The notes under the pieces were generated by a model. It saw only the letters and a list, made by a program, of their open reading frames with translations. It did not search any database and was not told where the DNA came from. Source: a virus (Duplodnaviria > Heunggongvirae > Uroviricota > Caudoviricetes). From it: a DNA stretch of 9,732 nt. The first letter of the stretch is position 1. Each line of letters begins with the position of its first letter. Shown piece by piece: positions 1 to 9,732 of this stretch. The position numbers and the translations under genes were made by a program. The DNA lies in the IMG/VR virus record IMGVR_UViG_2703718824_000010, positions 1 through 9,732 of that record. One strand, given 5' to 3'.

Positions 1-1
1 G

Positions 2-94
2 CAGCGGTCGGCAGGCGCTAAGGCAGAACTGGCACTGGCGGAGAAACTGGGGCATGCAGTTATTTTCCAGGAGGCAACCAGTGAGTGGGATTAA
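2..94 (+). CDS. 3' end of an upstream gene (partial, start outside window); unknown function
   Basis: Frame 2 is open from the window edge to TAA at 92..94. It competes with the 5' end of the next ORF, so only one of the two readings is real here. Confidence 0.3.
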   Translation, partial: QRSAGAKAELALAEKLGHAVIFQEATSEWD

Positions 95-425
95 TTATCA
101 GGCGCTGCGTGAGGCGGCACAAAACTATCAGTCGATGCTGGCGTGGTATCAGGAGAAACCAGACAGTCCAAACGCTGAGCAGGATTGTGATGCAGCTTTG
201 GCTGCGTTTAAGTGTGAAATCCGTCATCGTGAAGTGGATATTATCGCTGATTTGCTGGATGAACTGGAGGAAGCAAAACAGCGTATCGACGAGCAGGAGT
301 CCCGCATAGTGAAGTTACCAGAACCATTCAAGCTGGCTAAATCATCAAGTGGATTAACGTACTACTACGCTGATGAGGTCAATGCCGCACTGACTGCTGC
401 TGGTATTCGCATAGAAGGAGAGTGA
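54..425 (+). CDS. hypothetical phage nin-region protein (123 aa; alternative GTG start at 81)
   Basis: ORF with ATG at 54 preceded by GGAGA (40..44). An alternative GTG at 81 is preceded by a better AGGAGG (69..74, 6-nt spacer). Stop TGA 423..425 sits directly before the next gene's start. No family recognised by eye. Confidence 0.6.
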   Translation: MQLFSRRQPVSGINYQALREAAQNYQSMLAWYQEKPDSPNAEQDCDAALAAFKCEIRHREVDIIADLLDELEEAKQRIDEQESRIVKLPEPFKLAKSSSGLTYYYADEVNAALTAAGIRIEGE

Positions 426-426
426 G

Positions 427-795
427 ATGACCACTATTACCAAAGAGCGACTGCAATGGCTGGCTAACATTTCTGGCCGCGATGACATTGACGATATAGA
501 CGGCGGTGAAATTCGTGAGCTGGCGCTTATCGCACTGGCATCGCTGGAAGCAGAGCCAGTGGCAAAGATTATAGCTCATTACCCATTAGGAGTTGACGTA
601 GGCAAACAAAAGTTCGTACAGGCCATTGGAGAGCTTCCTGACTTTGGCGGATATCTATTTGCCGTCCCGCCAGCGCTGGTAGTGCCTGATAAGTCGCCGC
701 GTGAATACATAAGAGGTTGGCCTCTTGCGCATAGTGATTATGCTGAAGGATGGAACGATTGCCGTGCTGCAATGCTTAATGGAGATAAATCATGA
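427..795 (+). CDS. hypothetical phage protein (122 aa)
   Basis: ATG 427 follows the upstream stop by 1 nt and is preceded by AAGGAG (415..420). Acidic N-terminal region. The stop overlaps the next start (ATGA at 792..795). Confidence 0.7.
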   Translation: MTTITKERLQWLANISGRDDIDDIDGGEIRELALIALASLEAEPVAKIIAHYPLGVDVGKQKFVQAIGELPDFGGYLFAVPPALVVPDKSPREYIRGWPLAHSDYAEGWNDCRAAMLNGDKS

Positions 796-1145
796 TTGAT
801 CGAACCAAACTGGAGCACATCCTCGAATATGCCAGGCAGCAGAGGCATATTGGTCAGCATTGTAAAATTCCACCAGGAGATATGGTTGAAATCATGGAGA
901 TTGCCATGTGCAAGGCTGGCAATTCTCCGGTAACTCCGGATGGTTGGATAAGCTGTAGTGAGCGAATGCCGCCAGTTGGTGTTGATGTACAACTGTTTGT
1001 GTCCAGCACGGGGGAACAGTTTACAGGTTTTAACCTGGATAATACGGGTGACTTCCAGTATGCGCAGTGTTTCGGTGCGCCTATCGTGTGTGAAGCCACA
1101 CACTGGATGCCGCTACCAGAACCGCCGAAGGAGGTGCGCCAATGA
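792..1145 (+). CDS. DUF551-like phage protein (117 aa)
   Basis: ATG 792 overlaps the upstream stop, with GGAGA at 782..786. The C-terminal THWMPLPEPPK matches my recollection of DUF551 prophage proteins; this is recalled, not searched. Confidence 0.65.
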   Translation: MIDRTKLEHILEYARQQRHIGQHCKIPPGDMVEIMEIAMCKAGNSPVTPDGWISCSERMPPVGVDVQLFVSSTGEQFTGFNLDNTGDFQYAQCFGAPIVCEATHWMPLPEPPKEVRQ

Positions 1146-1225
1146 GCTGGCCTGAGGCCTTCTCAAATGTTGGTATTGCAATGGCGGTGGCGCTGGTGGT
1201 GTATTCGATTTGCCGCTGGGGATAA
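1142..1225 (+). CDS. small hydrophobic peptide, 27 aa (MSWPEAFSNVGIAMAVALVVYSICRWG), putative single-pass membrane peptide
   Basis: Strong SD AAGGAGG (1128..1134), 7-nt spacer, ATG 1142 overlapping the upstream TGA (ATGA coupling). Hydrophobic core consistent with one transmembrane helix. Below the 60-aa cutoff of the ORF track. Confidence 0.45.
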   Translation: MSWPEAFSNVGIAMAVALVVYSICRWG

Positions 1226-1317
1226 AAACGGTTTGCGGGGAAAGAAGAGTTAAGTAGAATTGCTGCGGGTGCTTGAGGCTGTCTGCCTCGGGCATGCCGC
1301 CGTAAGGCAGACAGAGA

Positions 1318-1395
1318 AAAGCCCCAGTTAACATTACGCGTCTTGCAGGACGCTTAACATTAATCTGAGGCCCAATCTATGCTTCACAAACGTAG
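1318..1395 (-). ncRNA. candidate Sok-like antisense RNA opposite the mok start region
   Basis: Minus strand has a possible promoter (TTGCCT, 17 nt, TAACCT) right of the mok start and an imperfect hairpin followed by a U-run (GGGGCUUUUCUCUG) ending near 1320. Placed by analogy to hok/sok; boundaries approximate. Confidence 0.3.
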
Positions 1396-1591
1396 GTTAG
1401 CCTCTTACGTGCCGAAAGGCAAGGAGAAGCAGGCTATGAAGCAGCAAAAGGCGATGTTAATCGCCCTGATCGTCATCTGTATTACCGTTGTTGTGACGGC
1501 ACTGGTAACGAGGAAAGACCTCTGCGAGGTACGAATCCGAACCGGCCAGACGGAGGTTGCTGTCTTCGTAGACTACGAATCTGAGAAGTAA
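1379..1591 (+). CDS. Mok-like in-frame N-terminal extension of hok (70 aa)
   Basis: ATG 1379 is in frame with hok and adds 19 codons (MLHKRRLASYVPKGKEKQA), the arrangement recalled for chromosomal mok/hok pairs. Weak SD CTGAGG upstream. Confidence 0.45.
   Translation: MLHKRRLASYVPKGKEKQAMKQQKAMLIALIVICITVVVTALVTRKDLCEVRIRTGQTEVAVFVDYESEK
1436..1591 (+). CDS. hok: Hok/Gef family type I toxin (51 aa membrane peptide)
   Basis: MKQQKAMLIALIVICITVVVTALVTRKDLCEVRIRTGQTEVAVFVDYESEK: transmembrane segment followed by the TRKDLCEV.IRTGQTEVA motif characteristic of Hok/Gef/RelF. SD AAGGAGAAG (1421..1429) before ATG 1436. Confidence 0.85.
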   Translation: MKQQKAMLIALIVICITVVVTALVTRKDLCEVRIRTGQTEVAVFVDYESEK

Positions 1592-1600
1592 GAGTGACCA

Positions 1601-1622
1601 GGCGAGGGAGAAATCCCTCGCC
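1601..1622 (+). other. 9-bp stem-loop just 3' of hok (GGCGAGGGA / GAAA / TCCCTCGCC), possible mRNA 3'-end fold-back element
   Basis: Perfect 9-bp inverted repeat with a 4-nt loop, 10 nt after the hok stop. No U-run follows, so it looks more like a stabilising or fbi-like element than a classical terminator. Confidence 0.45.
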
Positions 1623-1712
1623 ACCTCTGATGTGTCAGGCATCCTCAACGCACCCGCGCTTTACCATACTGAAAATGCTGTTTGAATGTTCATTTCTGAA
1701 AGAGGACTATGA

Positions 1713-2057
1713 ATGAAAAAGGTATTGATTGCAGCACTTATTTCCGGTGTGTCTTTTGGCGTTTTTGCACAGCAGGGTGGTTTCCAGGGGCCTGAAGCAG
1801 AGCGTTCAACAGTAGCGCAGGCAAAAGAACTGAAGGATGATGCATGGGTTATCCTTGAAGGGAGCATCATTAAAAAAGTGGGTGATGAACGTTATGAGTT
1901 TCGTGACAATAGCGGGACAATTGTCACGGATATTGATGACAGCGTATGGGCCGGGCAGAATGTTTCTCCGAAAGACAAAGTAAGAATTGAGGGTGAAATT
2001 GATAAAGACCTGAGCAGTGTTGAAGTTGATGTAAAGGCACTGAAATTATTAAAGTAA
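1713..2057 (+). CDS. YgiW/YdeI (BOF, DUF388) family OB-fold periplasmic protein with signal peptide
   Basis: SD AAGAGGA before ATG 1713. N-terminal signal peptide MKKVLIAALISGVSFGVFAQQ. The mature part (GFQGP...AWVILEGSIIKKVGDERYEFRDNSGTI.V.ID...V.IEGE.D) matches the YgiW-family pattern. An intrinsic terminator follows. Confidence 0.85.
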   Translation: MKKVLIAALISGVSFGVFAQQGGFQGPEAERSTVAQAKELKDDAWVILEGSIIKKVGDERYEFRDNSGTIVTDIDDSVWAGQNVSPKDKVRIEGEIDKDLSSVEVDVKALKLLK

Positions 2058-2075
2058 CCGTCCCGGCTTGCTAAG

Positions 2076-2102
2076 CCCGTCTTACTGACGGGTTTTCTGT
2101 TT
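2076..2102 (+). terminator. rho-independent terminator after the ygiW-like gene
   Basis: CCCGTC / TTACT / GACGGG stem-loop followed by TTTTCTGTTT. Confidence 0.6.
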
Positions 2103-2179
2103 GTACATTCCAGGCGTATTGACTTACAATTCGCGCCGTCAGCCTGAACAACTGACACCTGCTGTCACCGGAGAATCCG

Positions 2180-2452
2180 ATGACACAACACATAAAATCC
2201 CACAATTCTGAAGCCGACCCGGAAATTAAGCGGGGGTGGCGTTTTCGTACGCCTCAGTATGGCTGGTTTCACTATCTGTTCTGTACGACCGATGAGGCAG
2301 ATATGCTTCAAGAGGCGTATCTGCGTCGCGGTGTCCGTGTGGAGCGGAGTCTGAACGTTGATCGTCTGACCTGGACCGTTTCTGTATATCTTCCTGTTCG
2401 CGCACATCTGCCACGAACAAATGCCTGCTACCGTCAGCGTGTCTGGAGATAA
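2180..2452 (+). CDS. hypothetical phage protein (90 aa)
   Basis: GGAGA (2170..2174), 5-nt spacer, ATG 2180. Stop TAA 2450..2452 abuts the next gene's GTG at 2454. No family recognised. Confidence 0.55.
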   Translation: MTQHIKSHNSEADPEIKRGWRFRTPQYGWFHYLFCTTDEADMLQEAYLRRGVRVERSLNVDRLTWTVSVYLPVRAHLPRTNACYRQRVWR

Positions 2453-2453
2453 T

Positions 2454-3503
2454 GTGCGGGTATTACTTCGACCTGTTCTGGTCCCGGAACTTGGCCTGGT
2501 GGTCATTAAGCCAGGTCGCGAATTACTGCCGGTTTTTCATCGCGGCAGGGTGCTGGTGGAGCCGGAACCCAAAAGCATGCGGAGTTTGCCGTCCGGGGTT
2601 GTTCCTGTCGTTTGCCAGCCGCTGGCTGAGGATAAATCATTACTGCCATTTTTCAGCAATGAACGGGTGATTCGTGCCGCTGGCGGTGCTGGTGCGCTGT
2701 CTGACTGGTTATTACGTCACGTGAAATCCTGCCAGTGGCCACATGGCGATTATCATCACAGCGAAACCGTCATTCACCGTTATGGTACCGGCGCGATGGT
2801 GTTGTGCTGGCACTGTGACAACCAGCTGCGCGACCAGACATCAGAATCACTCGATCAACTTGCTCAGCAGAATCTGGTTGCCTGGATGATTGACGTCATC
2901 CGTCATGCAATAAGCGGTACGCAGGAGAGGGAGTTATCGCTGGCCGAATTATCCTGGTGGGCGGCCTGCAATCAGGTGGTGGATGCATTACCTGAGGCAG
3001 TAGCGCGTCGTTCGCTGGGATTACCAGCGGAAAAAATCCGCTCCGTATACCGTGAGAGTGACATCGTACCGGGAGAACAGACAGCCATCAGCATACTGAA
3101 GCAGCGCACAAAAAATATTGCGCTGCCACTTCACGTCCACCAGCAACAAAATCCACCACAGAAAAAAACGGTTGTCAGTATCGCTGTTGATCCGGAGTCT
3201 CCTGAATCGTTCATGAAGCGGCCTAAACGTCGCCGTTGGGTTAATGAGAAATACACGCGCTGGGTAAAGACACAGCCGTGTGCGTGTTGTGGTAAGCCTG
3301 CTGACGATCCGCATCACCTGATTGGTCATGGTCAGGGGGGAATGGGGACAAAGGCCCACGATATTTTCACGCTACCGTTGTGCCGGGAACATCACAACGA
3401 ACTTCATGCAGACCCGCTGGAGTTTGAGAAAAAGTACGGCTCTCAGGTTGAGTTAATTTTTCGTTTTCTTGATCACGCCTTTGCAACCGGCGTGCTTGGG
3501 TAA
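2454..3503 (+). CDS. DUF968 / NinG-like prophage protein with C-terminal HNH-type Cys/His motif (349 aa from GTG 2454; the ORF track's ATG 2421 would overlap the upstream gene)
   Basis: Long ORF whose C-terminus carries CACCGKP..DPHHLIGHG.......C.EHHNELH, a zinc/HNH-like signature. GTG 2454 is preceded by GGAGA (2444..2448) and starts 2 nt after the upstream stop. Resemblance to Qin-prophage YdfU-type proteins is recalled, not searched. Confidence 0.7.
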   Translation: MRVLLRPVLVPELGLVVIKPGRELLPVFHRGRVLVEPEPKSMRSLPSGVVPVVCQPLAEDKSLLPFFSNERVIRAAGGAGALSDWLLRHVKSCQWPHGDYHHSETVIHRYGTGAMVLCWHCDNQLRDQTSESLDQLAQQNLVAWMIDVIRHAISGTQERELSLAELSWWAACNQVVDALPEAVARRSLGLPAEKIRSVYRESDIVPGEQTAISILKQRTKNIALPLHVHQQQNPPQKKTVVSIAVDPESPESFMKRPKRRRWVNEKYTRWVKTQPCACCGKPADDPHHLIGHGQGGMGTKAHDIFTLPLCREHHNELHADPLEFEKKYGSQVELIFRFLDHAFATGVLG

Positions 3504-3515
3504 AAGAGGTTACTG

Positions 3516-3878
3516 ATGCGTATAGAGTTTGTTTTGCCTTATCCGCCGACGGTGAATACTTACTGGCGACGTCGTGGCAGCACATATTTTATATCTGAGG
3601 AGGGAAAGTGCTATCGCCGGGCAGTGGCGCTTATTGTTCGCCAGCAGCGGCTGAAATTAAGCCTGTCCGGAAGGCTGGCGATAAAGGTGATTGCAGAGCC
3701 ACCGGATAAGCGCCGCCGTGACCTGGATAATATCCTGAAAGCGCCGCTGGATGCGCTGACGCATGCAGGGTTGTTAATGGACGATGAGCAGTTTGATGAA
3801 ATCAATATTGTACGTGGCCAGCCAGTATCTGGTGGACGGCTGGAGATAAGAATTACAGAGGTGGGTGTGCATGAATAA
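3516..3878 (+). CDS. rusA: RusA Holliday-junction resolvase (120 aa)
   Basis: AAGAGG before ATG 3516. The size and the motifs PPT.N.YW....G, DKRRRDLDNILKAPLDALTHAG.L.DD and GGRLEI.ITE match RusA, including the catalytic acidic-residue region. Confidence 0.9.
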   Translation: MRIEFVLPYPPTVNTYWRRRGSTYFISEEGKCYRRAVALIVRQQRLKLSLSGRLAIKVIAEPPDKRRRDLDNILKAPLDALTHAGLLMDDEQFDEINIVRGQPVSGGRLEIRITEVGVHE

Positions 3879-4560
3879 CCAGTATTTACAGTTTGTTCGT
3901 GAGCAACTCATGATTGCCACTGCGGATCTCAGTGTGTCGATAAAAGGCCAACTGGAAGCCTGGCAGGAAAATGCACTGTTCGATACAGGGCGTTACAGAC
4001 GCAAAAAAATTCGTTACCGCGATGAGGTAACCGGAAAAATGATCACGCGGGATAACCCACCGATCCCGGGTAAACAATCACTGGCGAAAGGGACGTCAAT
4101 TGCTCTGGTCAGTCCGGTTGAGTTTTCGACATCATCATGGCGACGTGCAGTTCTGGAACTGGAAGCGCATCAGAAGGCGTGGTTGTTGTGGTGTTACGGC
4201 GGAAACATTTGCTGGGAGTATCAGATTGCGATAACGCAGTGGGCGTGGAATGAATTTAATACTCAATCCGGTACCAGAAAAATAGCTGGGAAAACGCTGG
4301 AACGTCTGAAGAAGTTGATCTGGCTGGCGGCGCAAGCGGTAAAAGCTGAGCTTTTTGGTGGGGAAGGTTATGAATACCGGGATCTGGCATCACTGGTGGG
4401 AGTGACATCAAAAAACTGGTCTGAGACATTTACTGAACGCTGGGTTGCAATGAAGCACATTTTTCTACAGCTTGATAGCCAAGCTTTATTGCTTTTAACG
4501 AAAACACGTTCAAAACAAAAGACCACATTTTCACAGCAAAATATTGCAAAACTGGATTAA
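3865..4560 (+). CDS. putative late-gene antiterminator Q-like protein (231 aa; possible start at ATG 3871)
   Basis: Assigned mainly by position: immediately after rusA, and its 3' end overlaps a strong sigma70 promoter followed by a nearby terminator, the pR'/tR' arrangement. No Q zinc-finger motif could be confirmed by eye, so the family is uncertain. Confidence 0.5.
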   Translation: MCMNNQYLQFVREQLMIATADLSVSIKGQLEAWQENALFDTGRYRRKKIRYRDEVTGKMITRDNPPIPGKQSLAKGTSIALVSPVEFSTSSWRRAVLELEAHQKAWLLWCYGGNICWEYQIAITQWAWNEFNTQSGTRKIAGKTLERLKKLIWLAAQAVKAELFGGEGYEYRDLASLVGVTSKNWSETFTERWVAMKHIFLQLDSQALLLLTKTRSKQKTTFSQQNIAKLD

Positions 4561-4572
4561 AAAGCATATATT
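4544..4572 (+). promoter_or_regulatory. candidate late promoter pR' (-35 TTGCAA, 17-nt spacer, -10 TATATT)
   Basis: Near-consensus sigma70 hexamers with ideal spacing overlap the stop of the Q-like gene. The predicted start near 4579 would give a roughly 70-nt transcript ending at the terminator at 4623..4649. Confidence 0.5.
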
Positions 4573-4622
4573 TCATGTAAATCTGATATTTTGCCGATTT
4601 TGTACGCGATGGCAAAGTAAGC

Positions 4623-4649
4623 AAACCCCGCCGCCGAGCGGGTTTTTTT
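4623..4649 (+). terminator. rho-independent terminator (tR'-like)
   Basis: AAACCCCGC / CGCCGA / GCGGG followed by seven T residues. Confidence 0.7.
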
Positions 4650-4753
4650 GTTGGCTTAACAGGTTATAATGTACAGTGCGAAACTGCCTGTTCAGCAGAA
4701 TCATTTTGTTTGTAGTGGAGTTCACAAGTCGTCATTATCAGGCAAAGAGATTT

Positions 4754-5155
4754 ATGGTGTTAAAGTATCAGCCGTCTGTTCGTTCTGTTTTAATGTGTGA
4801 TTTTCGGGGAATGGTTGTTCCGGAAATAGTCAAGGTCAGGCCAGTGGTAGTCGTGTCCAGAAACAGACACAACAATCAATTGGTAACAGTGGTACCAATA
4901 AGCACTACTGAACCGATTCCTCGCAGAGATTGCCATCATGAGTTATCAGAAAACCCCATCCCTGGTAATGAGCATATTACTTGTTGGGTAAAATGTGACA
5001 TGTTGATGACGGTTTCATTGAGCCGACTGGATCGCATAAAAACTAGAACCTGGGAGGGGCGAAATTATATTGTTCCTATGATTGCGGAAGATGAGTTTGA
5101 GAATATTAAACGGGCGGTATTGCACGGGATAGGGATGGCTTATCTGTATCGATAA
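4754..5155 (+). CDS. MazF/PemK/Kid-fold protein, putative endoribonuclease toxin (133 aa), with no adjacent antitoxin gene
   Basis: AAAGAGA before ATG 4754 (the track's longer ORF from 4676 lacks an RBS). VLMCDFRGMVVPEIVKVRPVVVVSRNRHNNQLVTVVPISTTEP follows the PemK/MazF N-terminal pattern (..DF.P..G.E....RP.vVvS ... vvP.T) as recalled. Confidence 0.65.
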   Translation: MVLKYQPSVRSVLMCDFRGMVVPEIVKVRPVVVVSRNRHNNQLVTVVPISTTEPIPRRDCHHELSENPIPGNEHITCWVKCDMLMTVSLSRLDRIKTRTWEGRNYIVPMIAEDEFENIKRAVLHGIGMAYLYR

Positions 5156-5172
5156 TCGAAAACGATTATCGA
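5149..5172. repeat. perfect 10-bp inverted repeat with AAAA spacer (TCGATAATCG aaaa CGATTATCGA), operator-like palindrome overlapping the stop codon
   Basis: Read directly from the sequence. With flanks, four TCGA tetramers lie within about 30 bp. No U-run follows, so it is not a typical terminator. Confidence 0.6.
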
Positions 5173-5190
5173 ATTCGATATGAATTTATA

Positions 5191-5219
5191 TTGACACACA
5201 TAGTGTGTTGACTGATACT
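5191..5219 (+). promoter_or_regulatory. candidate sigma70 promoter (-35 TTGACA, 17-nt spacer, -10 GATACT) with AT-rich upstream flank
   Basis: Consensus -35 and acceptable -10 with an AT-rich UP-like stretch (TATGAATTTATA). It points into a leader carrying an SD and two terminators. Confidence 0.5.
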
Positions 5220-5308
5220 GTCGCTGTACCCTGATGGGACTTGTGAGACTTCCGAACTGGAAGCCAGGAGTAGCAATAAGGTGATGACAAGCCTGCTGCC
5301 CCTGTGTA

Positions 5309-5340
5309 AAAGGCACCTTAATGGTGCCTTTGTCGTTTTT
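5309..5340 (+). terminator. intrinsic terminator 1 in the leader (AAGGCACC / TTAAT / GGTGCCTT + TGTCGTTTTT)
   Basis: 8-bp perfect stem followed by a T-rich tract. Confidence 0.55.
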
Positions 5341-5350
5341 ATCAAAAGAT

Positions 5351-5375
5351 CCCCGCCACTGGCGGGTTTTTTTTT
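5351..5375 (+). terminator. intrinsic terminator 2 in the leader (CCCGCC / ACT / GGCGGG + nine T)
   Basis: GC-rich hairpin followed by nine T residues. The pair forms a tandem terminator about 90-150 nt downstream of the 5191..5219 promoter. Confidence 0.7.
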
Positions 5376-5418
5376 CAAAATATTGGTGTGTCACGTTAAC
5401 CGGAAAAAGGAAAAAGAC

Positions 5419-5616
5419 ATGCTGAAACAGCAGGATATGACAGAAACCGCCAGAGTGGTGTTTAATGAATTAAGTGCCACCGAACCGGCGACAGTCGGGG
5501 AGATTGCGCAGAATACTTATCTTTCACGTGAACGCTGCCAGTTAATACTGACCCAGCTTGTTATGGCGGGTCTGGCAGACTATCAGTTCGGTTGTTACAG
5601 ACGCCTTCAGTCCTGA
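5419..5616 (+). CDS. small winged-helix DNA-binding protein, PapI/FaeA-like (65 aa)
   Basis: ATG 5419 has only a weak AAGGA upstream. TVGEIAQNTYLSRERCQLILTQLVMAGLA resembles the PapI/FaeA recognition-helix region as recalled. The stop lies inside a terminator hairpin. An in-frame upstream GTG/ATG (5281/5284) with strong AGGAG would read through both leader terminators. Confidence 0.6.
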   Translation: MLKQQDMTETARVVFNELSATEPATVGEIAQNTYLSRERCQLILTQLVMAGLADYQFGCYRRLQS

Positions 5617-5628
5617 AGGCTTTTTTAT
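5603..5628 (+). terminator. rho-independent terminator after the small wHTH gene
   Basis: GCCTTCA / GTCC / TGAAGGC followed by TTTTTT. Confidence 0.6.
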
Positions 5629-5766
5629 TTGTGGTAAATGGGCGGCTGGTGGGTGTTAGGGGCACTCACCAGCCATCTGCTCATGCGTCCGGATCACAAG
5701 CAAACCTCAGGCCCACTGCTTTGCGCAAAAGCAGAATGAGCCTATCAGAGACAGGCTTAATGATCC

Positions 5767-6825
5767 ATGCTTAATACTGTAAAAATATCCAGTTGTGAGT
5801 TAATCAACGCCGACTGCCTGGAATTTATCCGGTCGTTACCCGAAAATTCTGTTGACCTGATAGTCACGGACCCGCCGTACTTTAAAGTGAAGCCTGAGGG
5901 CTGGGATAACCAGTGGAAGGGCGACGATGATTACCTGAAGTGGCTGGACCAGTGTCTGGCGCAGTTCTGGCGGGTGCTGAAACCTGCCGGAAGTCTTTAC
6001 CTGTTCTGTGGCCATCGCCTGGCATCTGACATTGAAATCATGATGCGTGAACGCTTCAGTGTGCTGAACCATATTATCTGGGCGAAGCCGTCCGGACGCT
6101 GGAACGGGTGCAACAAGGAAAGCCTGAGGGCGTATTTCCCCGCCACAGAGCGCATTCTGTTCGCGGAACATTATCAGGGGCCGTATCGTCCGAAAGATGC
6201 CGGGTATGAGGCGAAGGGCAGGGCACTGAAACAGCATGTGATGGCCCCGCTGATTGCTTACTTTCGTGATGCACGTGCTGCCCTGGGGATAACGGCAAAA
6301 CAGATTGCTGATGCCACAGGAAAGAAAAACATGGTGTCGCACTGGTTCAGTGCCAGTCAGTGGCAGCTACCGGACGAAAGCGATTATCTGAAATTACAGG
6401 CGCTGTTTGCCCGGGTGGCAGAAGAGAAGCATCAGCGCGGAGAACTGGAAAAGCCACATCACCAACTGGTCAGCACATACAGTGAACTGAACCGACACTA
6501 TACGGAACTGCAGAGTGAATATAAGCATCTGCGGCGGTATTTCGGTGTGACGGCGCAGGTGCCGTACACCGATGTGTGGACGCATAAACCGGTGCAGTAC
6601 TATCCCGGGAAACATCCGTGCGAAAAACCGGCAGAAATGCTGCAGCAGATAATCAGCGCGAGCAGTCGTCCGGGTGACCTGGTTGCAGATTTTTTCATGG
6701 GGTCGGGTTCGACAGTCAAAGCAGCGATGGCGCTGGGGCGTCGTGCAACTGGCGTTGAGCTGGAGACTGAACGTTTTGAGCAGACGGTCAGGGAAGTTCA
6801 GGATTTAGCCAGTCAGAACGGATGA
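5767..6825 (+). CDS. beta-class DNA N6-adenine/N4-cytosine methyltransferase (352 aa), phage Dam-like orphan methylase
   Basis: Motif IV DPPY near the N-terminus (LIVTDPPYF) and motif I FxGxG near the C-terminus (DFFMGSGSTVKAA), the beta-class order typical of the N6_N4_Mtase family. ATG 5767 is the first start after an in-frame TGA. Confidence 0.9.
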   Translation: MLNTVKISSCELINADCLEFIRSLPENSVDLIVTDPPYFKVKPEGWDNQWKGDDDYLKWLDQCLAQFWRVLKPAGSLYLFCGHRLASDIEIMMRERFSVLNHIIWAKPSGRWNGCNKESLRAYFPATERILFAEHYQGPYRPKDAGYEAKGRALKQHVMAPLIAYFRDARAALGITAKQIADATGKKNMVSHWFSASQWQLPDESDYLKLQALFARVAEEKHQRGELEKPHHQLVSTYSELNRHYTELQSEYKHLRRYFGVTAQVPYTDVWTHKPVQYYPGKHPCEKPAEMLQQIISASSRPGDLVADFFMGSGSTVKAAMALGRRATGVELETERFEQTVREVQDLASQNG

Positions 6826-6865
6826 TATTGCAGGATTAGTTACGTACCGTTATTATCCTGCGCCC

Positions 6866-6941
6866 GGCCCTTTAGCTCAGTGGTGAGAGCGAGCGACTCA
6901 TAATCGCCAGGTCGCTGGTTCAAATCCAGCAAGGGCCACCA
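6866..6941 (+). tRNA. tRNA with anticodon CAU (Met, or Ile2 if lysidine-modified; ileZ-like in Stx phages)
   Basis: Hand-folded cloverleaf: acceptor GGCCCTT/AAGGGCC, D-arm GCTC..GAGC, anticodon loop CTCATAA, T-arm GCTGG-TTCAAAT-CCAGC, encoded 3' CCA. Confidence 0.9.
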
Positions 6942-6948
6942 TCACATA

Positions 6949-7025
6949 CCGCCATTAGCTCATCGGGATAGAGCGCCAGCCTTCGAAGCTGGTTGCGCGG
7001 GGTTCGAGTCCTCGATGGCGGTCCA
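6949..7025 (+). tRNA. tRNA-Arg (anticodon UCG)
   Basis: Acceptor CCGCCAT/ATGGCGG, anticodon stem CCAGC/GCTGG with loop CTTCGAA, T-loop TTCGAGT, encoded CCA. Confidence 0.85.
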
Positions 7026-7038
7026 TTATCTGTACACT

Positions 7039-7115
7039 GCGTTGTTAGCTCAGCCGGACAGAGCAATTGCCTTCTAAGCAATCGGTCACTGGTTCGAATC
7101 CAGTACAACGCACCA
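7039..7115 (+). tRNA. tRNA-Arg (anticodon UCU)
   Basis: Acceptor GCGTTGT/ACAACGC, anticodon stem ATTGC/GCAAT with loop CTTCTAA, T-arm ACTGG-TTCGAAT-CCAGT, encoded CCA. Confidence 0.9.
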
Positions 7116-7200
7116 CACTTATTTTTCCTGGCTCGCTTTTGTGGGCCTTTTTTGCCTCCGCGCCACGCCCGGCGCATATCAACCACAGAGCCTTTCACAA

Positions 7201-8136
7201 ATGGTTTTTCAGGAGTCCAATAATCGCGATGTCGCCAGAAAATACGCAGAGTACATCACGTCCGTTCCTTTGCGTCGGTTTGTCGCTGAAAAAGTGCGGG
7301 AATATTGTGGTGATCTGCCCCTGAGTATTTTTGATGGTGCGTGTGGCTCCGGGCAACTGGAGCAGTTTCTCACGGTGGGAAGTCTGTATGCTGTGGATAT
7401 ACAGGCCTCTCCGTTGTTGCATATCCCGGATAATTTCCCGGATGCCACAGTGAAGACGGTCAATGAAAATTTCTTCAACGCCATCGATGATGTCAGTGAC
7501 ACGGACACGTTCGATTGTGTCATCATGAATCCGCCTTTTTCGCTACAGTACAAAGCACAGAGCGCGGATATCAGGGAGAAGATTTCAGCGATGATGCCTT
7601 ATAAAAAGACCTCCGGTGTTCTGGATGACGCGTTTTATGTTCTGGCGAGCATGAAGGCAAGATTTTCATTTTTTTTGTGCTTTCCCGGGGTTGGTTACAG
7701 GCGTGGTGAGCTGGCAATGCGTCAGTATTTTGGCAACCGCGTTGTTGAGTTGGTTCAGATTTCAGGCGGGTTCGCTGATACATCGGTTTCTGTATTATTC
7801 GTCATTATTGATAACGAAAAGCAAAGCGATGATGTTGTTGTTTATGGCGTCGGGTTTAATGGGGAAACTTGCAAAAAGTCAGCGCCGGTGACGGAGAAGA
7901 TTAACACAGACAACTGGAACAGGCCGTACATTGCTGAAGAGAAGGAGGTCATTGACATTGTACAGGTGACGGCTGAGTTGCTTGTAAGGCAAACAAGAAG
8001 ACGGAAACTTGAAGATGAGCATAACGCCTTTGTGTGGTCCTTAATGAGTGATGATCAGCGGACGGAGGTTTCCCGTTTTCTGTCAGTGCACGGTTTGTTT
8101 TTTGATGCCGGTTCAGGTTGTGTGCACATACGTTAA
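7201..8136 (+). CDS. gamma-order SAM-dependent N6-adenine methyltransferase-like protein (311 aa from ATG 7201; the track's ORF opens at GTG 7141, too close to the tRNA)
   Basis: Motif I FDGACGSGQLEQF (like HsdM DPACGSGGFL) lies upstream of motif IV DCVIMNPPF, the gamma-class order. No signal peptide and no Stx-like features. No obvious SD before 7201. It is short for a DNA methyltransferase with a full target-recognition domain. Confidence 0.7.
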   Translation: MVFQESNNRDVARKYAEYITSVPLRRFVAEKVREYCGDLPLSIFDGACGSGQLEQFLTVGSLYAVDIQASPLLHIPDNFPDATVKTVNENFFNAIDDVSDTDTFDCVIMNPPFSLQYKAQSADIREKISAMMPYKKTSGVLDDAFYVLASMKARFSFFLCFPGVGYRRGELAMRQYFGNRVVELVQISGGFADTSVSVLFVIIDNEKQSDDVVVYGVGFNGETCKKSAPVTEKINTDNWNRPYIAEEKEVIDIVQVTAELLVRQTRRRKLEDEHNAFVWSLMSDDQRTEVSRFLSVHGLFFDAGSGCVHIR

Positions 8137-8200
8137 ATCTGGTGCCGGTCGCTGGTTGCCGGTGTCGTGATGATTGTCTTCCTGTTGCCCCGAAAATTTT

Positions 8201-8439
8201 AAATGTCTCACAATTCAGACGGTTGACAGTTGTCTGATTTGCGGGGAGTTTGTTAAAAGAAACTGGCATGGTGAATCCCCCTGAGCGGAGGGGCATATCA
8301 GCGACAGGTGTTTGGTTACATCCCTTATCCTTTCTGTGCGGGTTCAGGTGCTGATACTGAACTCACCGGGAGGCACCCGGCACCATGCGCATGATGATAC
8401 AGATACGCAGCGTCAGCCCCTCTCCGGAGGGGCTTTTCT
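8201..8439 (+). repeat. structured non-coding module, copy A (candidate sRNA gene): conserved 5' box, two hairpins, intrinsic terminator
   Basis: Shares ordered blocks with copy B: CTCACAATTCAG, TTTGTTAAAA (extended -10-like), hairpin CCCCT-GAGCGG-AGGGG (8276..8294), CTGAACTCACCGGGAGGCACCCGGCA (hairpin 8366..8380), and terminator AGCCCCTC/TCCG/GAGGGGCT+TTTCT (8415..8439). Candidate ORFs inside are not conserved between copies. Confidence 0.5.
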
Positions 8440-8512
8440 GTGCCGGATACATCACAGTTTCTGGAACCTTGGGTACTACAGTATCAGTCAGGGTGCTATA
8501 TTTTCAGATGTG

Positions 8513-8614
8513 ATGAAAGCCTGTCAGCAGGCAGGGCGTATCGGAAATGACCCAGTAGAGAAAACGTTGACTCAGATACCGGTGCTGAGTTACCGGGAAA
8601 CCGGCATCACATGA
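8513..8614 (+). CDS. possible 33-codon small ORF (MKACQQAGRIGNDPVEKTLTQIPVLSYRETGIT), speculative
   Basis: Extended -10 TGcTATATT at 8494..8502 just upstream and a terminator just downstream, but no SD. The longer 100-aa track ORF (8312..8614) runs through the copy A hairpins and terminator and is rejected. Confidence 0.2.
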   Translation: MKACQQAGRIGNDPVEKTLTQIPVLSYRETGIT

Positions 8615-8628
8615 CCGCTATCCTTCCA

Positions 8629-8656
8629 GGCCCGTCCGCTCCGGTGGGCCTTTTTA
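8629..8656 (+). terminator. intrinsic terminator (GGCCCGTCCG / CTC / CGGTGGGCC + TTTTT)
   Basis: GC-rich imperfect stem followed by five T residues. Confidence 0.5.
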
Positions 8657-8679
8657 CTGCAGAAAACAGGTTCCCCGTT

Positions 8680-8929
8680 AAATGCTATGTTGCTCACAAT
8701 TCAGTCAGTTGAAGGTTGTCTTCCCGACTGAGAATTTGTTAAAAAATTTCTGCATGATGAATCCCCCTGTGCGGAGGGGCGGCTGGTGTACGGAATGGTC
8801 TCTGATGATCGTTAGCGAGAATGACGCGGGTTCGGTGGCACCGGGCTGAACTCACCGGGAGGCACCCGGCATCATGTAATGAACGGTACATAGCGCTACT
8901 CTTCAGCCCCTCTCCGGAGGGGCTTTCTT
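8680..8929 (+). repeat. structured non-coding module, copy B (candidate sRNA gene), paralogous to copy A
   Basis: Same block order as copy A: CTCACAATTCAG, TTTGTTAAAA, hairpin CCCCT-GTGCGG-AGGGG (8764..8780), CTGAACTCACCGGGAGGCACCCGGCA (8849..8870), terminator AGCCCCTC/TCCG/GAGGGGCT+TTCTT (8905..8929). The stretches between blocks have diverged. Confidence 0.5.
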
Positions 8930-8933
8930 ATGG

Positions 8934-8964
8934 ATAAAAAAAGCCCGCATGGTGAGATGCGGGC
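8934..8964 (-). terminator. hairpin GCCCGCAT / GGTGAG / ATGCGGGC preceded by an A-run on +, i.e. a minus-strand intrinsic terminator (or insulator)
   Basis: 8-bp perfect stem. The + strand has AAAAAAA upstream and no T-run downstream, so it would terminate leftward minus-strand transcription. Confidence 0.4.
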
Positions 8965-9161
8965 AGCAAGGAATAAACAACAAAACGTGAAGTAATCAAT
9001 TTTTCAGCTGGAGAATAATACCCGACAGTAATCACTCTGCGCAACTGCGCGGCCTTTTTCGTATTGCGGGCTGTAGTCTTCCTCCTGCCATTGTCCTGTA
9101 ACTTCCGGACTTCAGCCCGCCCCTCATCTGACTCACAACATTATCCCGACCGGGAGGATTC

Positions 9162-9732
9162 ATGGCATTTAAACACTATGACGTGGTCAGGGCGGCGTCG
9201 CCGTCAGACCTTGCGGAGCGACTGACTCAAAAACTGAAGGAGGGGTGGCAGCCATTTGGCAGTCCTGTCGCCATCACGCCTTATACCCTGATGCAGGCCA
9301 TTGCGGCGGAAGGTGATGTCACCACACCTGTGTTAGTGAAGCCGTCGGCTGGAGAAGGCACAGTAATCAGCGCCACCAGAGACCCGGAGTATTACTTTGT
9401 TGTGGTTCTGGCGGGGCAGTCAAACAGCATGGCATATGGTGAAGGCCTTCCGCTGCCGGAGACATATGACCGTCCGGACCCGCGTATTAAGCAGCTGGCG
9501 CGCCGCAGTACAGTGACACCGGGTGGTGCCGCCTGTAAGTATAACGACATTATTCCGGCGGACTATTGTCTGCATGATGTGCAGGACATGAGCCGTCTTA
9601 ACCATCCGAAAGCGGACCTGTCAAAGGGGCAGTACGGAACCGTGGGGCAGGGGCTGCATATCGCCAAAAAACTGCTGCCGTTTATACCGGCGAATGCGGG
9701 TATTTTGCTGGTTCCGTGCTGCCGTGGTGCTT
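9162..9732 (+). CDS. nanS-p: NanS-p-like sialate O-acetylesterase (N-terminal DUF1737 plus start of SGNH/SASA domain); partial, continues past the window
   Basis: GGGAGG (9152..9157) before ATG 9162. The N-terminus MAFKHYDVVRAASPSDLAERLTQKLKEGWQPFGSPVAITPY matches the DUF1737 start of Stx-prophage NanS-p/YjhS-like esterases as recalled. A GQSN block (SGNH block I) follows. Open to the window edge. Confidence 0.8.
   Translation, partial: MAFKHYDVVRAASPSDLAERLTQKLKEGWQPFGSPVAITPYTLMQAIAAEGDVTTPVLVKPSAGEGTVISATRDPEYYFVVVLAGQSNSMAYGEGLPLPETYDRPDPRIKQLARRSTVTPGGAACKYNDIIPADYCLHDVQDMSRLNHPKADLSKGQYGTVGQGLHIAKKLLPFIPANAGILLVPCCRGA

Follow-up and report, generated by a model that had tools for sequence, protein, structure and literature searches.

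Among the described toxin-antitoxin loci of the hok/sok type, the closest to the one examined here is hokW-sokW, known from the Stx2 phages 933W (AF125520) and Sp5, the latter of Escherichia coli O157:H7 Sakai. Our locus, a hok/mok/sok unit preceded by a 27-codon open reading frame (ORF), lies in a 9,732-nucleotide (nt) stretch of DNA, positions 1 to 9,732 of IMG/VR virus record IMGVR_UViG_2703718824_000010, whose source is a lambdoid prophage of Shiga-toxin-type E. coli; this whole stretch is referred to below as the window. We conclude, at a probability of about 0.9, that this region of the window holds two independent things: an intact hok/mok/sok locus at 1233-1655 and a separate 27-codon gene at 1142-1225. 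Working with the Sp5 copy, Takada et al. (2021; PMC8621323) found that HokW arrests growth and that sokW, transcribed from its own promoter, prevents this arrest, partly via RNase III and Hfq, whilst mutations in the sokW -10 element released the toxicity. The sokW RNA was seen by northern blot (PMC8621323). Upon treatment with mitomycin C the sokW RNA vanishes, in a RecA-dependent manner, and the hokW mRNA stays; after induction HokW is found in the inner membrane ~1 h ahead of endolysin, and deletion of hokW-sokW halves phage release (PMC8621323).

The hok/sok (parB) locus of plasmid R1 and its IncF relatives are alike in architecture and logic: mok is in frame with hok, the sok promoter lies opposite mok codons, and a 3′ hairpin is present together with an fbi element complementary to tac. 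The regulatory elements of R1 hok, including the definition of ucb, have been listed by Le Rhun et al. (PMC9841398). However, tac of R1 begins GGCGCUUGAGG, compared with GGGUGCUUGAGG in the window, and R1 Hok is only ~35% identical to the window Hok (18/51 residues in our own alignment; 44% is reported between HokW and R1 Hok, PMC8621323). R1 Sok is also shorter, its Rfam model lacking the 16-nt hairpin insertion of the window; moreover, R1 carries a terminator hairpin after fbi and serves in plasmid maintenance, whereas the window derives from a prophage. A third relative is hokD (relF) of the Qin prophage, K-12 type. Its toxin type agrees with the window Hok at 45/51 residues and it keeps the 3′ hairpin and fbi, but the K-12-type copy (L131 in our set) lacks the upstream hok leader, mok and sok region, all of which are present in the window.

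Relationship to hokW-sokW

The window shares ~92% DNA identity with 933W/Sp5 over a block that includes the 27-codon ORF and a YgiW-like gene, and the 933W record annotates sokW (71 nt, antisense), mokW and hokW. The two loci are alike in their leader elements, in a predicted or annotated 71-nt Sok with an extended hairpin and in the lack of a terminator after fbi. They differ in setting, the 933W locus being at 58.4-58.7 kb, near the end of the record, and that of the window between the replication genes and RusA/Q; the gene upstream encodes the coiled-coil protein L0139 in 933W and a DUF551 protein in the window. The Sok 5′ tail and target loop also differ at several positions between the two loci (CUAUGCUUCAC vs CCAUGCUGAAC). 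Judged by its sequence, the locus is thus an intact allele of the known hokW-sokW and not a new system. Its reading frames and their Shine-Dalgarno (SD) sequences are as follows.

1436-1591, plus strand: hok toxin gene, 51 amino acids (aa), from Pfam HOK_GEF, PHROG 251 and identity with HokW
1379-1591, plus strand: mok frame of 70 codons, in frame with hok, from the ORF list and annotated as mokW in 933W
1367-1370, plus strand: mok SD, GAGG, from the sequence
1421-1426, plus strand: hok SD, AAGGAG, from the sequence and nearly invariant in the alignment of relatives

An earlier reading of the window made from the sequence alone (the sequence-only reading) had called the 51-aa ORF a Hok/Gef toxin, and database searches bear this out. 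Pfam HOK_GEF (PF01848) matches residues 25-66 of the 70-aa product (E=8.4e-23, 80.1 bits, cut-off 22) and PHROG 251, 'MokW-like host killing', matches the Hok ORF at 6.9e-32; a match to the NCBIfam Hok family (2.6e-14) falls below the cut-off of that model. The Prokaryotic Genome Annotation Pipeline (PGAP) calls the gene a Hok/Gef family protein, with the label hokD in one genome. The window Hok is identical to HokW at 49/51 residues, the two differences being I16L and V19I. A Mok-like in-frame start upstream had likewise been proposed, and the ATG at 1379, with GAGG before it, does open a 70-aa ORF. In the R1-type plasmid locus mok is in frame too, with 71 codons, and therefore an in-frame mok is not peculiar to the window locus.

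Leader elements and alternative folds of the hok mRNA

Every regulatory element listed for R1 hok (PMC9841398) was located in the window.

1233-1260, plus strand: putative hok promoter, with -35-like TTGCGG (1233-1238), a 16-nt spacer and -10 TAGAAT (1255-1260)
1267-1655, plus strand: hok mRNA through fbi, from the Rfam match, the fold and conserved pairing
1267-1278, plus strand: tac, GGGUGCUUGAGG, paired with fbi when the RNA is full-length and with ucb once its 3′ end is truncated; entropy 0.014
1279-1314, plus strand: 5′ hairpin of the leader, present in both folds, its helix 97% paired and one pair being A-U in 49 and G-C in 33 sequences
1317-1325, plus strand: ucb anti-SD box, AAAAGCCCC, holding the mok SD in the full-length RNA and pairing with tac in the truncated RNA
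1400-1404, plus strand: dcb, GCCUC, pairing with the mok SD in the truncated fold
1601-1622, plus strand: 3′ stem-loop of 9 bp with a 4-nt loop, GGCGAGGGA GAAA TCCCTCGCC, present in both folds
1643-1655, plus strand: fbi, CCUCAACGCACCC, complementary to tac, from the fold

The putative hok promoter lies between the 27-codon ORF and the hok ORF, and in relatives with aligned upstream sequence TAGAAT or TATAAT stands at a constant distance from GGGTGC. The mRNA would start at about G1267, the position that corresponds to the first position of the Rfam model. That model, RF01794, matches 1267-1441 on the plus strand over its full length (model 1-157) with 117.7 bits, against a gathering score of 59 (E=5.8e-27). 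Although named 'sok antitoxin', the match marks the hok leader and not the Sok-coding strand: the consensus ends in the hok SD and AUG, and therefore the model represents the hok leader strand, of which Sok is the complement.

The full-length RNA (1267-1662) folds at -164.6 kcal/mol (z = -5.8). In both the minimum-energy and the centroid fold tac at 1267-1278 pairs with fbi at 1643-1655, and the mok SD GAGG is paired with GCCCC of ucb. When the RNA is truncated (1267-1627), tac moves to ucb, the mok SD moves to dcb and a hairpin forms at 1374-1398. This switch matches exactly the description of R1 hok in PMC9841398. The 9-bp stem-loop that had been noted at the 3′ end of the toxin ORF is found at 1601-1622 in both folds. 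In R1 hok, mutation of the equivalent hairpin opens the processed mRNA to exonucleases (PMC9841398), and by analogy the window stem-loop is expected to be where the active mRNA ends after processing and to block 3′-5′ exonucleases. The sequence-only reading had ended the whole unit at this point, at 1622. The features that it listed are in place, but the extent it gave the hok unit was too short, as fbi lies at 1643-1655; as placed by its sequence elements, the hok module spans 1233-1655 and reaches at least to 1655.

Comparative support for both folds came from hok loci gathered from viral and genome collections, of which 100 distinct sequences were aligned. For the full-length structure 90.2% of cells held standard pairs, compared with 34-43% when the partners were slid, and 37 pairs were changed on both sides; 0/500 shuffles reached that number, a control whose significance is overstated by the mutual relatedness of the loci. 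The leader of the truncated form was 89.2% paired (33-46% slid), with 19 pairs changed on both sides, again a number that 0/500 shuffles reached. Covariation is clear in three places, namely the 5′ hairpin, the Sok-terminator hairpin and the 3′ hairpin (4/5 inner pairs). The remaining helices are almost invariant: tac/fbi is 95.5% paired over the 100 loci, with one G-C pair replaced by A-U in 2 sequences, tac/ucb is 96.0% paired and mok-SD/dcb 96.9%. Support for these three rests on conservation of both partners rather than on covariation. The alignment that had been suggested as a check on tac/fbi and the Sok-target elements finds the pairings of both folds kept across relatives, and every fold element is intact in the window.

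The 3′ flank of fbi is where the window departs from the common arrangement. Most relatives, and the R1 type, have an intrinsic terminator, for instance AACCCGCUUCGGCGGGUUUUUU, within ~10 nt of fbi. In the window and in 933W, a form represented by 27 loci of the set, this terminator is replaced by sequence that runs into the YgiW-like gene, and the first terminator-like site after fbi is at 2073-2095, past that gene (1713-2057). From this layout, hok and the OB-fold gene may be co-transcribed; the published northern blots of hokW-sokW are given without sizes (PMC8621323).

Given that several chromosomal hok copies of laboratory E. coli are decayed, the window locus could itself be an inert relic. 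The whole leader is indeed lost in some relatives (L131 of the relBE-hokD type, L208, L236 and L087), the window has no terminator after fbi, and both of its promoters are weak by consensus. However, promoter, tac, ucb, mok SD and ORF, dcb, hok SD and ORF, 3′ hairpin and fbi are all intact and in register, and those stem positions that differ from the functional hokW are compensated. The terminator-less form also occurs in the working ortholog, and at least seven RefSeq chromosomes of Shiga toxin-producing E. coli (STEC) carry window positions 1100-1700 at 100% identity. We therefore regard decay as extremely improbable and retain an intact hok/mok/sok locus.

The predicted Sok antisense RNA and its target loop

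An antisense RNA had been expected opposite the mok start, at 1318..1395. Transfer of the sokW coordinates of 933W through the alignment gave window 1387..1317 on the minus strand, so that the expected interval is nearly, but not exactly, that of the predicted RNA.

1387 to ~1317, minus strand: predicted Sok RNA of ~71 nt, with 5′ tail GUGAAGCAUAG, a long hairpin and then GGGGCUUUUCUC
1394-1422, minus strand: putative sok promoter, with -35 TTGCCT (1422-1417), a 17-nt spacer, -10 TAACCT (1399-1394) and start at G1387
1374-1398, plus strand: Sok-target hairpin containing the mok AUG, formed in the truncated fold, its helix 80.5% paired across loci

The minus strand from 1387 to 1312 (76 nt) forms a long hairpin between an unpaired 5′ end and CUUUUCUCU, with an energy of -30 kcal/mol (z = -4.67) that 0/200 shuffles equalled. 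The putative sok promoter has the same place and layout as that of the R1-type plasmid (TTGCGC, 17 nt, TATCCT), and its region is conserved (entropy 0.216). Thus the minus-strand promoter and U-tailed hairpin that the sequence-only reading had described as present but weak do have the layout expected of a sok gene, and weak remains a fair description, a consensus scan having made no call (see below).

The target loop, CUUCACAAA (1382-1390), is complementary to the first 11 nt of the predicted Sok and contains UUCA, which we take to be a YUNR motif. Across the 92 loci with a canonical leader this loop has a mean entropy of 1.04 bits, the maximum of the locus, and the hairpin occurs in 34 variants; tac, ucb, SD, dcb and the coding region range from 0.01 to 0.22 bits in the same loci. 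E. coli genomes have a median of 2 and a maximum of 11 places that match the hok region. In genomes that hold so many such places, the variability of the target loop and of the Sok 5′ tail (1377-1387, minus strand) may come from avoidance of cross-talk between co-resident hok/sok copies.

Evidence for a probable gene in the 27-codon ORF

The second element lies immediately upstream of the hok promoter and overlaps the end of a DUF551 gene.

1142-1225, plus strand: 27-codon ORF, MSWPEAFSNVGIAMAVALVVYSICRWG, from the ORF list; its ATG and the DUF551 stop TGA share the four bases ATGA, and the product is a predicted single-pass membrane microprotein
1128-1136, plus strand: SD of the 27-codon ORF, AAGGAGGTG, within the last codons of the DUF551 gene
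792-1145, plus strand: DUF551 gene, from the ORF list; its product matches Pfam DUF551

The sequence-only reading had singled out, separately from hok, a 27-aa hydrophobic peptide whose SD precedes a start overlapping the DUF551 stop. Both the SD and the ATGA overlap are where it put them, and comparative data now back a real gene. The peptide has a mean Kyte-Doolittle value of 1.96 over residues 6-24. The coding sequence is under selection: among 62 distinct DNA variants the ratio of non-synonymous to synonymous variation (pN/pS), computed pairwise, is 0.39 in frame, whereas the two other frames give 0.74 and 1.78; the entropy by codon position is 9.3/5.6/16.7. The seven first codons, which are fixed by the search pattern in one of the data sets, were left out of both calculations. 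The hok-selected loci yielded 40 copies, each of them 27 codons long; in 39 the ATG is followed by A and so overlaps TGA, and an SD-like motif is present in 38.

It could still be argued that the ORF is no gene at all, and that it is carried along with its neighbours or matters for spacing, for the hok promoter or for mRNA stability. It is left unannotated by PGAP in the three RefSeq records that we inspected, it belongs to no Pfam, NCBIfam or PHROG family, it is missing from the available parts of two survey supplements and many of its copies are near-identical prophage sequences. However, variation in the ORF is codon-periodic and its pN/pS is below 1 and lowest in frame. Moreover, length, start, SD and ATGA are kept where both neighbours are different, as in a Vequintavirinae phage and in P1-like phage-plasmids, and divergent members retain WP[ED]AF and the hydrophobic helix although their DNA has diverged. 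This alternative is therefore unlikely. Very likely, as we read these sequence patterns, the 27-codon ORF is a genuine gene, independent of hok, whose product is a small membrane protein; translation, membrane location and function of that product are what we infer from them.

Distribution and family of the 27-codon ORF

Relatives were sought by tblastn, by a degenerate DNA pattern in which ATGA and WPEAF were fixed, with a 48-aa extended product and with a profile. With tblastn the ORF was found, its 27 codons retained, in 96 phage records at 55-89% identity. The degenerate pattern occurs in more than 119 viral contigs, nearly all of which go on with hydrophobic codons and reach a stop after 22-34 codons. 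DNA of the ORF is present in 1643/5426 complete E. coli genomes (~30%), with plasmids accounting for 161 of the matching places. When 1.84 billion protein representatives were searched with the profile, 58 clusters matched at E<=1e-3, the diverged members of which keep WP[ED]AF, a G/A-rich helix and a basic-aromatic end.

The peptide had no match in PHROGs or NCBIfam and none above cut-off in Pfam. Sub-cut-off Pfam matches to DUF7220 (E=0.05), DUF883_C (0.04) and PetL (6.5e-4) were rejected as plain hydrophobicity, as were those to PTR2 and B12D. Where GenBank names the product at all it does so sporadically, as 'hypothetical protein' or 'bacteriophage protein', and the WPEAF motif returned only unrelated papers from the literature. 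At 84 nt, the ORF may be missed by gene callers owing to its shortness.

We considered whether the peptide is a third component of the hok module, for instance one that modulates Hok or partners it in the membrane. Sampled from either side, roughly half of the loci have the two next to each other: the ORF precedes hok in 48/106 loci selected through hok, and hok follows the ORF in 48/97 loci selected through the ORF. Both products would be small inner-membrane peptides, and only 8 nt separate the end of the ORF from the hok -35. The remaining half of the loci, however, have one without the other. No hok stands beside the ORF in ArgO145, Av-05 (Vequintavirinae), BP-4795 and a P1-like phage, where other genes follow it, and the 350 nt read upstream of the R1-type plasmid hok/sok contain no such ORF. 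The spacing between ORF and hok also falls into several classes, with a terminator or a further small hydrophobic ORF in between. A role as a hok component is thus very unlikely. The position of the ORF instead ties it, as far as gene order can tell, to the gene upstream and not to hok: in each of these four phages the upstream coding sequence ends inside the first four bases of the unannotated ORF.

The further small ORF was seen in two viral contigs (L023 and L012), where a hydrophobic ORF of 34 codons with an SD before it (MSDDISLAMEGALAVIAVVGVYCLVVFLMDRLGN) and a hairpin after it lies between the 27-codon ORF and hok. It fills the extra 175 nt of the ~385-nt spacing class; the class of L036 has a terminator instead.

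A further question is whether the peptide mainly serves as the C-terminal membrane anchor of the upstream protein, by a frameshift or in fused genes, rather than as a free 27-aa product. In two protein clusters, P0085 (143 aa) and P0086 (206 aa), the 27-aa sequence is fused in frame to an Ead/Ea22-like C-terminus, a hint that the peptide is connected with the upstream protein or that genes have fused or split. In the window no stop interrupts the peptide frame over at least the 15 codons before the ATG, as P0026-like products show. Yet the last DUF551 codons contain no slippery heptamer, and the ATG, the SD and the overlapping TGA stop are conserved (ATG+A in 39/40 and SD in 38/40 copies). The genes upstream are, moreover, mutually unrelated: they end in at least four unrelated ways and, by Pfam, encode DUF551, three proteins without a family and a coiled-coil protein. 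Anchoring is accordingly a most improbable main role, and we keep to a free peptide.

Related readings were rejected as well. A -1 frameshift from DUF551 into the peptide frame lacks a slippery site, with ATG, SD and stop conserved. An apparent DUF551-peptide fusion came from a mixed 90% cluster whose 121-aa DUF551 proteins are without the peptide. Fragments of 26-39 aa named 'DUF551, partial' are contig-edge calls in the peptide frame and are not evidence of fusion.

E. coli and its phages encode other small hydrophobic inner-membrane peptides, including the toxins TisB, ShoB and DinQ and the regulators AcrZ, MgtS and PmrR, and genes of this kind are routinely missed by annotation. The 27-aa product resembles peptides of the TisB/AcrZ type in size (19-49 aa) and in having one predicted transmembrane helix. 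Unlike the TisB type, it would be expressed through ATGA coupling to the early phage gene upstream, rather than from a regulated mRNA of its own; neither an antisense RNA nor a leader structure was found for it. We consider it probable that the ORF founds an undescribed family of phage membrane microproteins, defined by WP[ED]AF, one helix, usually an RWG end and ATGA coupling, which sits at the ends of early-operon genes in lambdoid, P1-like and Vequintavirinae phages and has an inner-membrane role of its own in early lytic growth.

Proposed mechanism

The sequence elements, both folds and their conservation are observed at the window locus itself. Toxicity, antitoxin activity of Sok, dependence on RNase III and Hfq, loss of Sok after mitomycin C and the halved phage release of the deletion mutant come from work on the ortholog, whose HokW is 96% identical to the window Hok. 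We propose that the hok mRNA starts near 1267 and that in the full-length RNA, with tac and fbi paired, the mok SD would be held by ucb and translation prevented. Trimming of the 3′ end back to the 1601-1622 hairpin would allow tac/ucb and mok SD/dcb to form and expose the hairpin of the mok AUG. Sok, made from its own minus-strand promoter, would then bind the loop through its 5′ tail, and the duplex would be destroyed. If Sok were lost, Mok would be translated, Hok would follow by coupling and the inner membrane would be damaged.

How Sok might be lost upon induction is suggested by the surroundings. In a consensus scan neither strand showed a terminator-like site from the upstream genes to hok, and therefore early transcription should run through the locus. 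Early-operon transcription would thereby pass, unterminated, head-on into the sok promoter and could remove Sok on induction; head-on transcription would account for the RecA-dependent loss of sokW in the ortholog. By analogy with hokW-sokW, the window locus most likely speeds lysis after prophage induction. The 27-codon gene, for its part, would be translated by coupling to the upstream stop to give a single-pass microprotein with WPEAF, a hydrophobic helix and RWG.

A number of points weigh against the conclusion that the window holds an intact hok/mok/sok locus and a separate gene. The consensus scan called neither the hok promoter, the sok promoter nor the Sok terminator, all of which we retained on comparative grounds. 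The full-length hok 3′ end, from which the maturation pathway would start, has no terminator after fbi to account for it. The structures tested were derived from the window sequence, which favours them over the slid controls, and covariation says little about the tac/fbi helix as this is near-invariant. Transcriptional interference as the cause of Sok loss is something that we infer. For the 27-codon ORF, most copies come from closely related E. coli prophages and the counts are thus not independent, and its motif does not occur in the available supplements to two surveys, one of ribosome profiling in Sakai and one of the Enterobacteriaceae microproteome.

Genomic setting

The neighbouring genes were taken from an identical RefSeq prophage. 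Here replication genes are followed by DUF1627, an Ead/Ea22-like gene, a hypothetical gene, DUF551 and hok, and then by YgiW/BOF-like, DUF968, RusA, Q, MazF-like and methyltransferase genes and three tRNAs. From this gene order the locus sits, between the replication genes and RusA/Q, at the position of the lambda nin region, which is where the sequence-only reading had placed it.

1713-2057: YgiW/BOF-like (OB-fold) gene, directly following the hok unit

Other features of the window lie further downstream. A PemK/MazF-like toxin ORF at 4676-5155 directly follows the Q antiterminator gene, and no antitoxin is annotated beside it in the identical RefSeq record. Three tRNA genes (6866-7112; Ile, Arg and Arg in that record) are found between two DNA methyltransferase genes, the position at which Stx phages have tRNAs, upstream of stx. 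The STnc100 small RNA family (RF02076) is present twice in tandem, at 8237-8443 and 8723-8935 (134.9 and 164.6 bits), downstream of the tRNAs and of a methyltransferase gene.

Conclusions

In summary, the hok/sok part of the window has little discovery value, being a complete hokW-sokW allele in a non-Stx lambdoid prophage of STEC, and hokW-sokW has already been shown to speed lysis and to double phage release after induction. A useful by-product is the variable Sok tail and target loop in an otherwise highly conserved locus. The part worth following up is the 27-codon ORF, a concrete and easily tested small-protein candidate. It would represent a common, conserved phage gene that has stayed outside the family libraries searched and the RefSeq annotations inspected, probably owing to its shortness.

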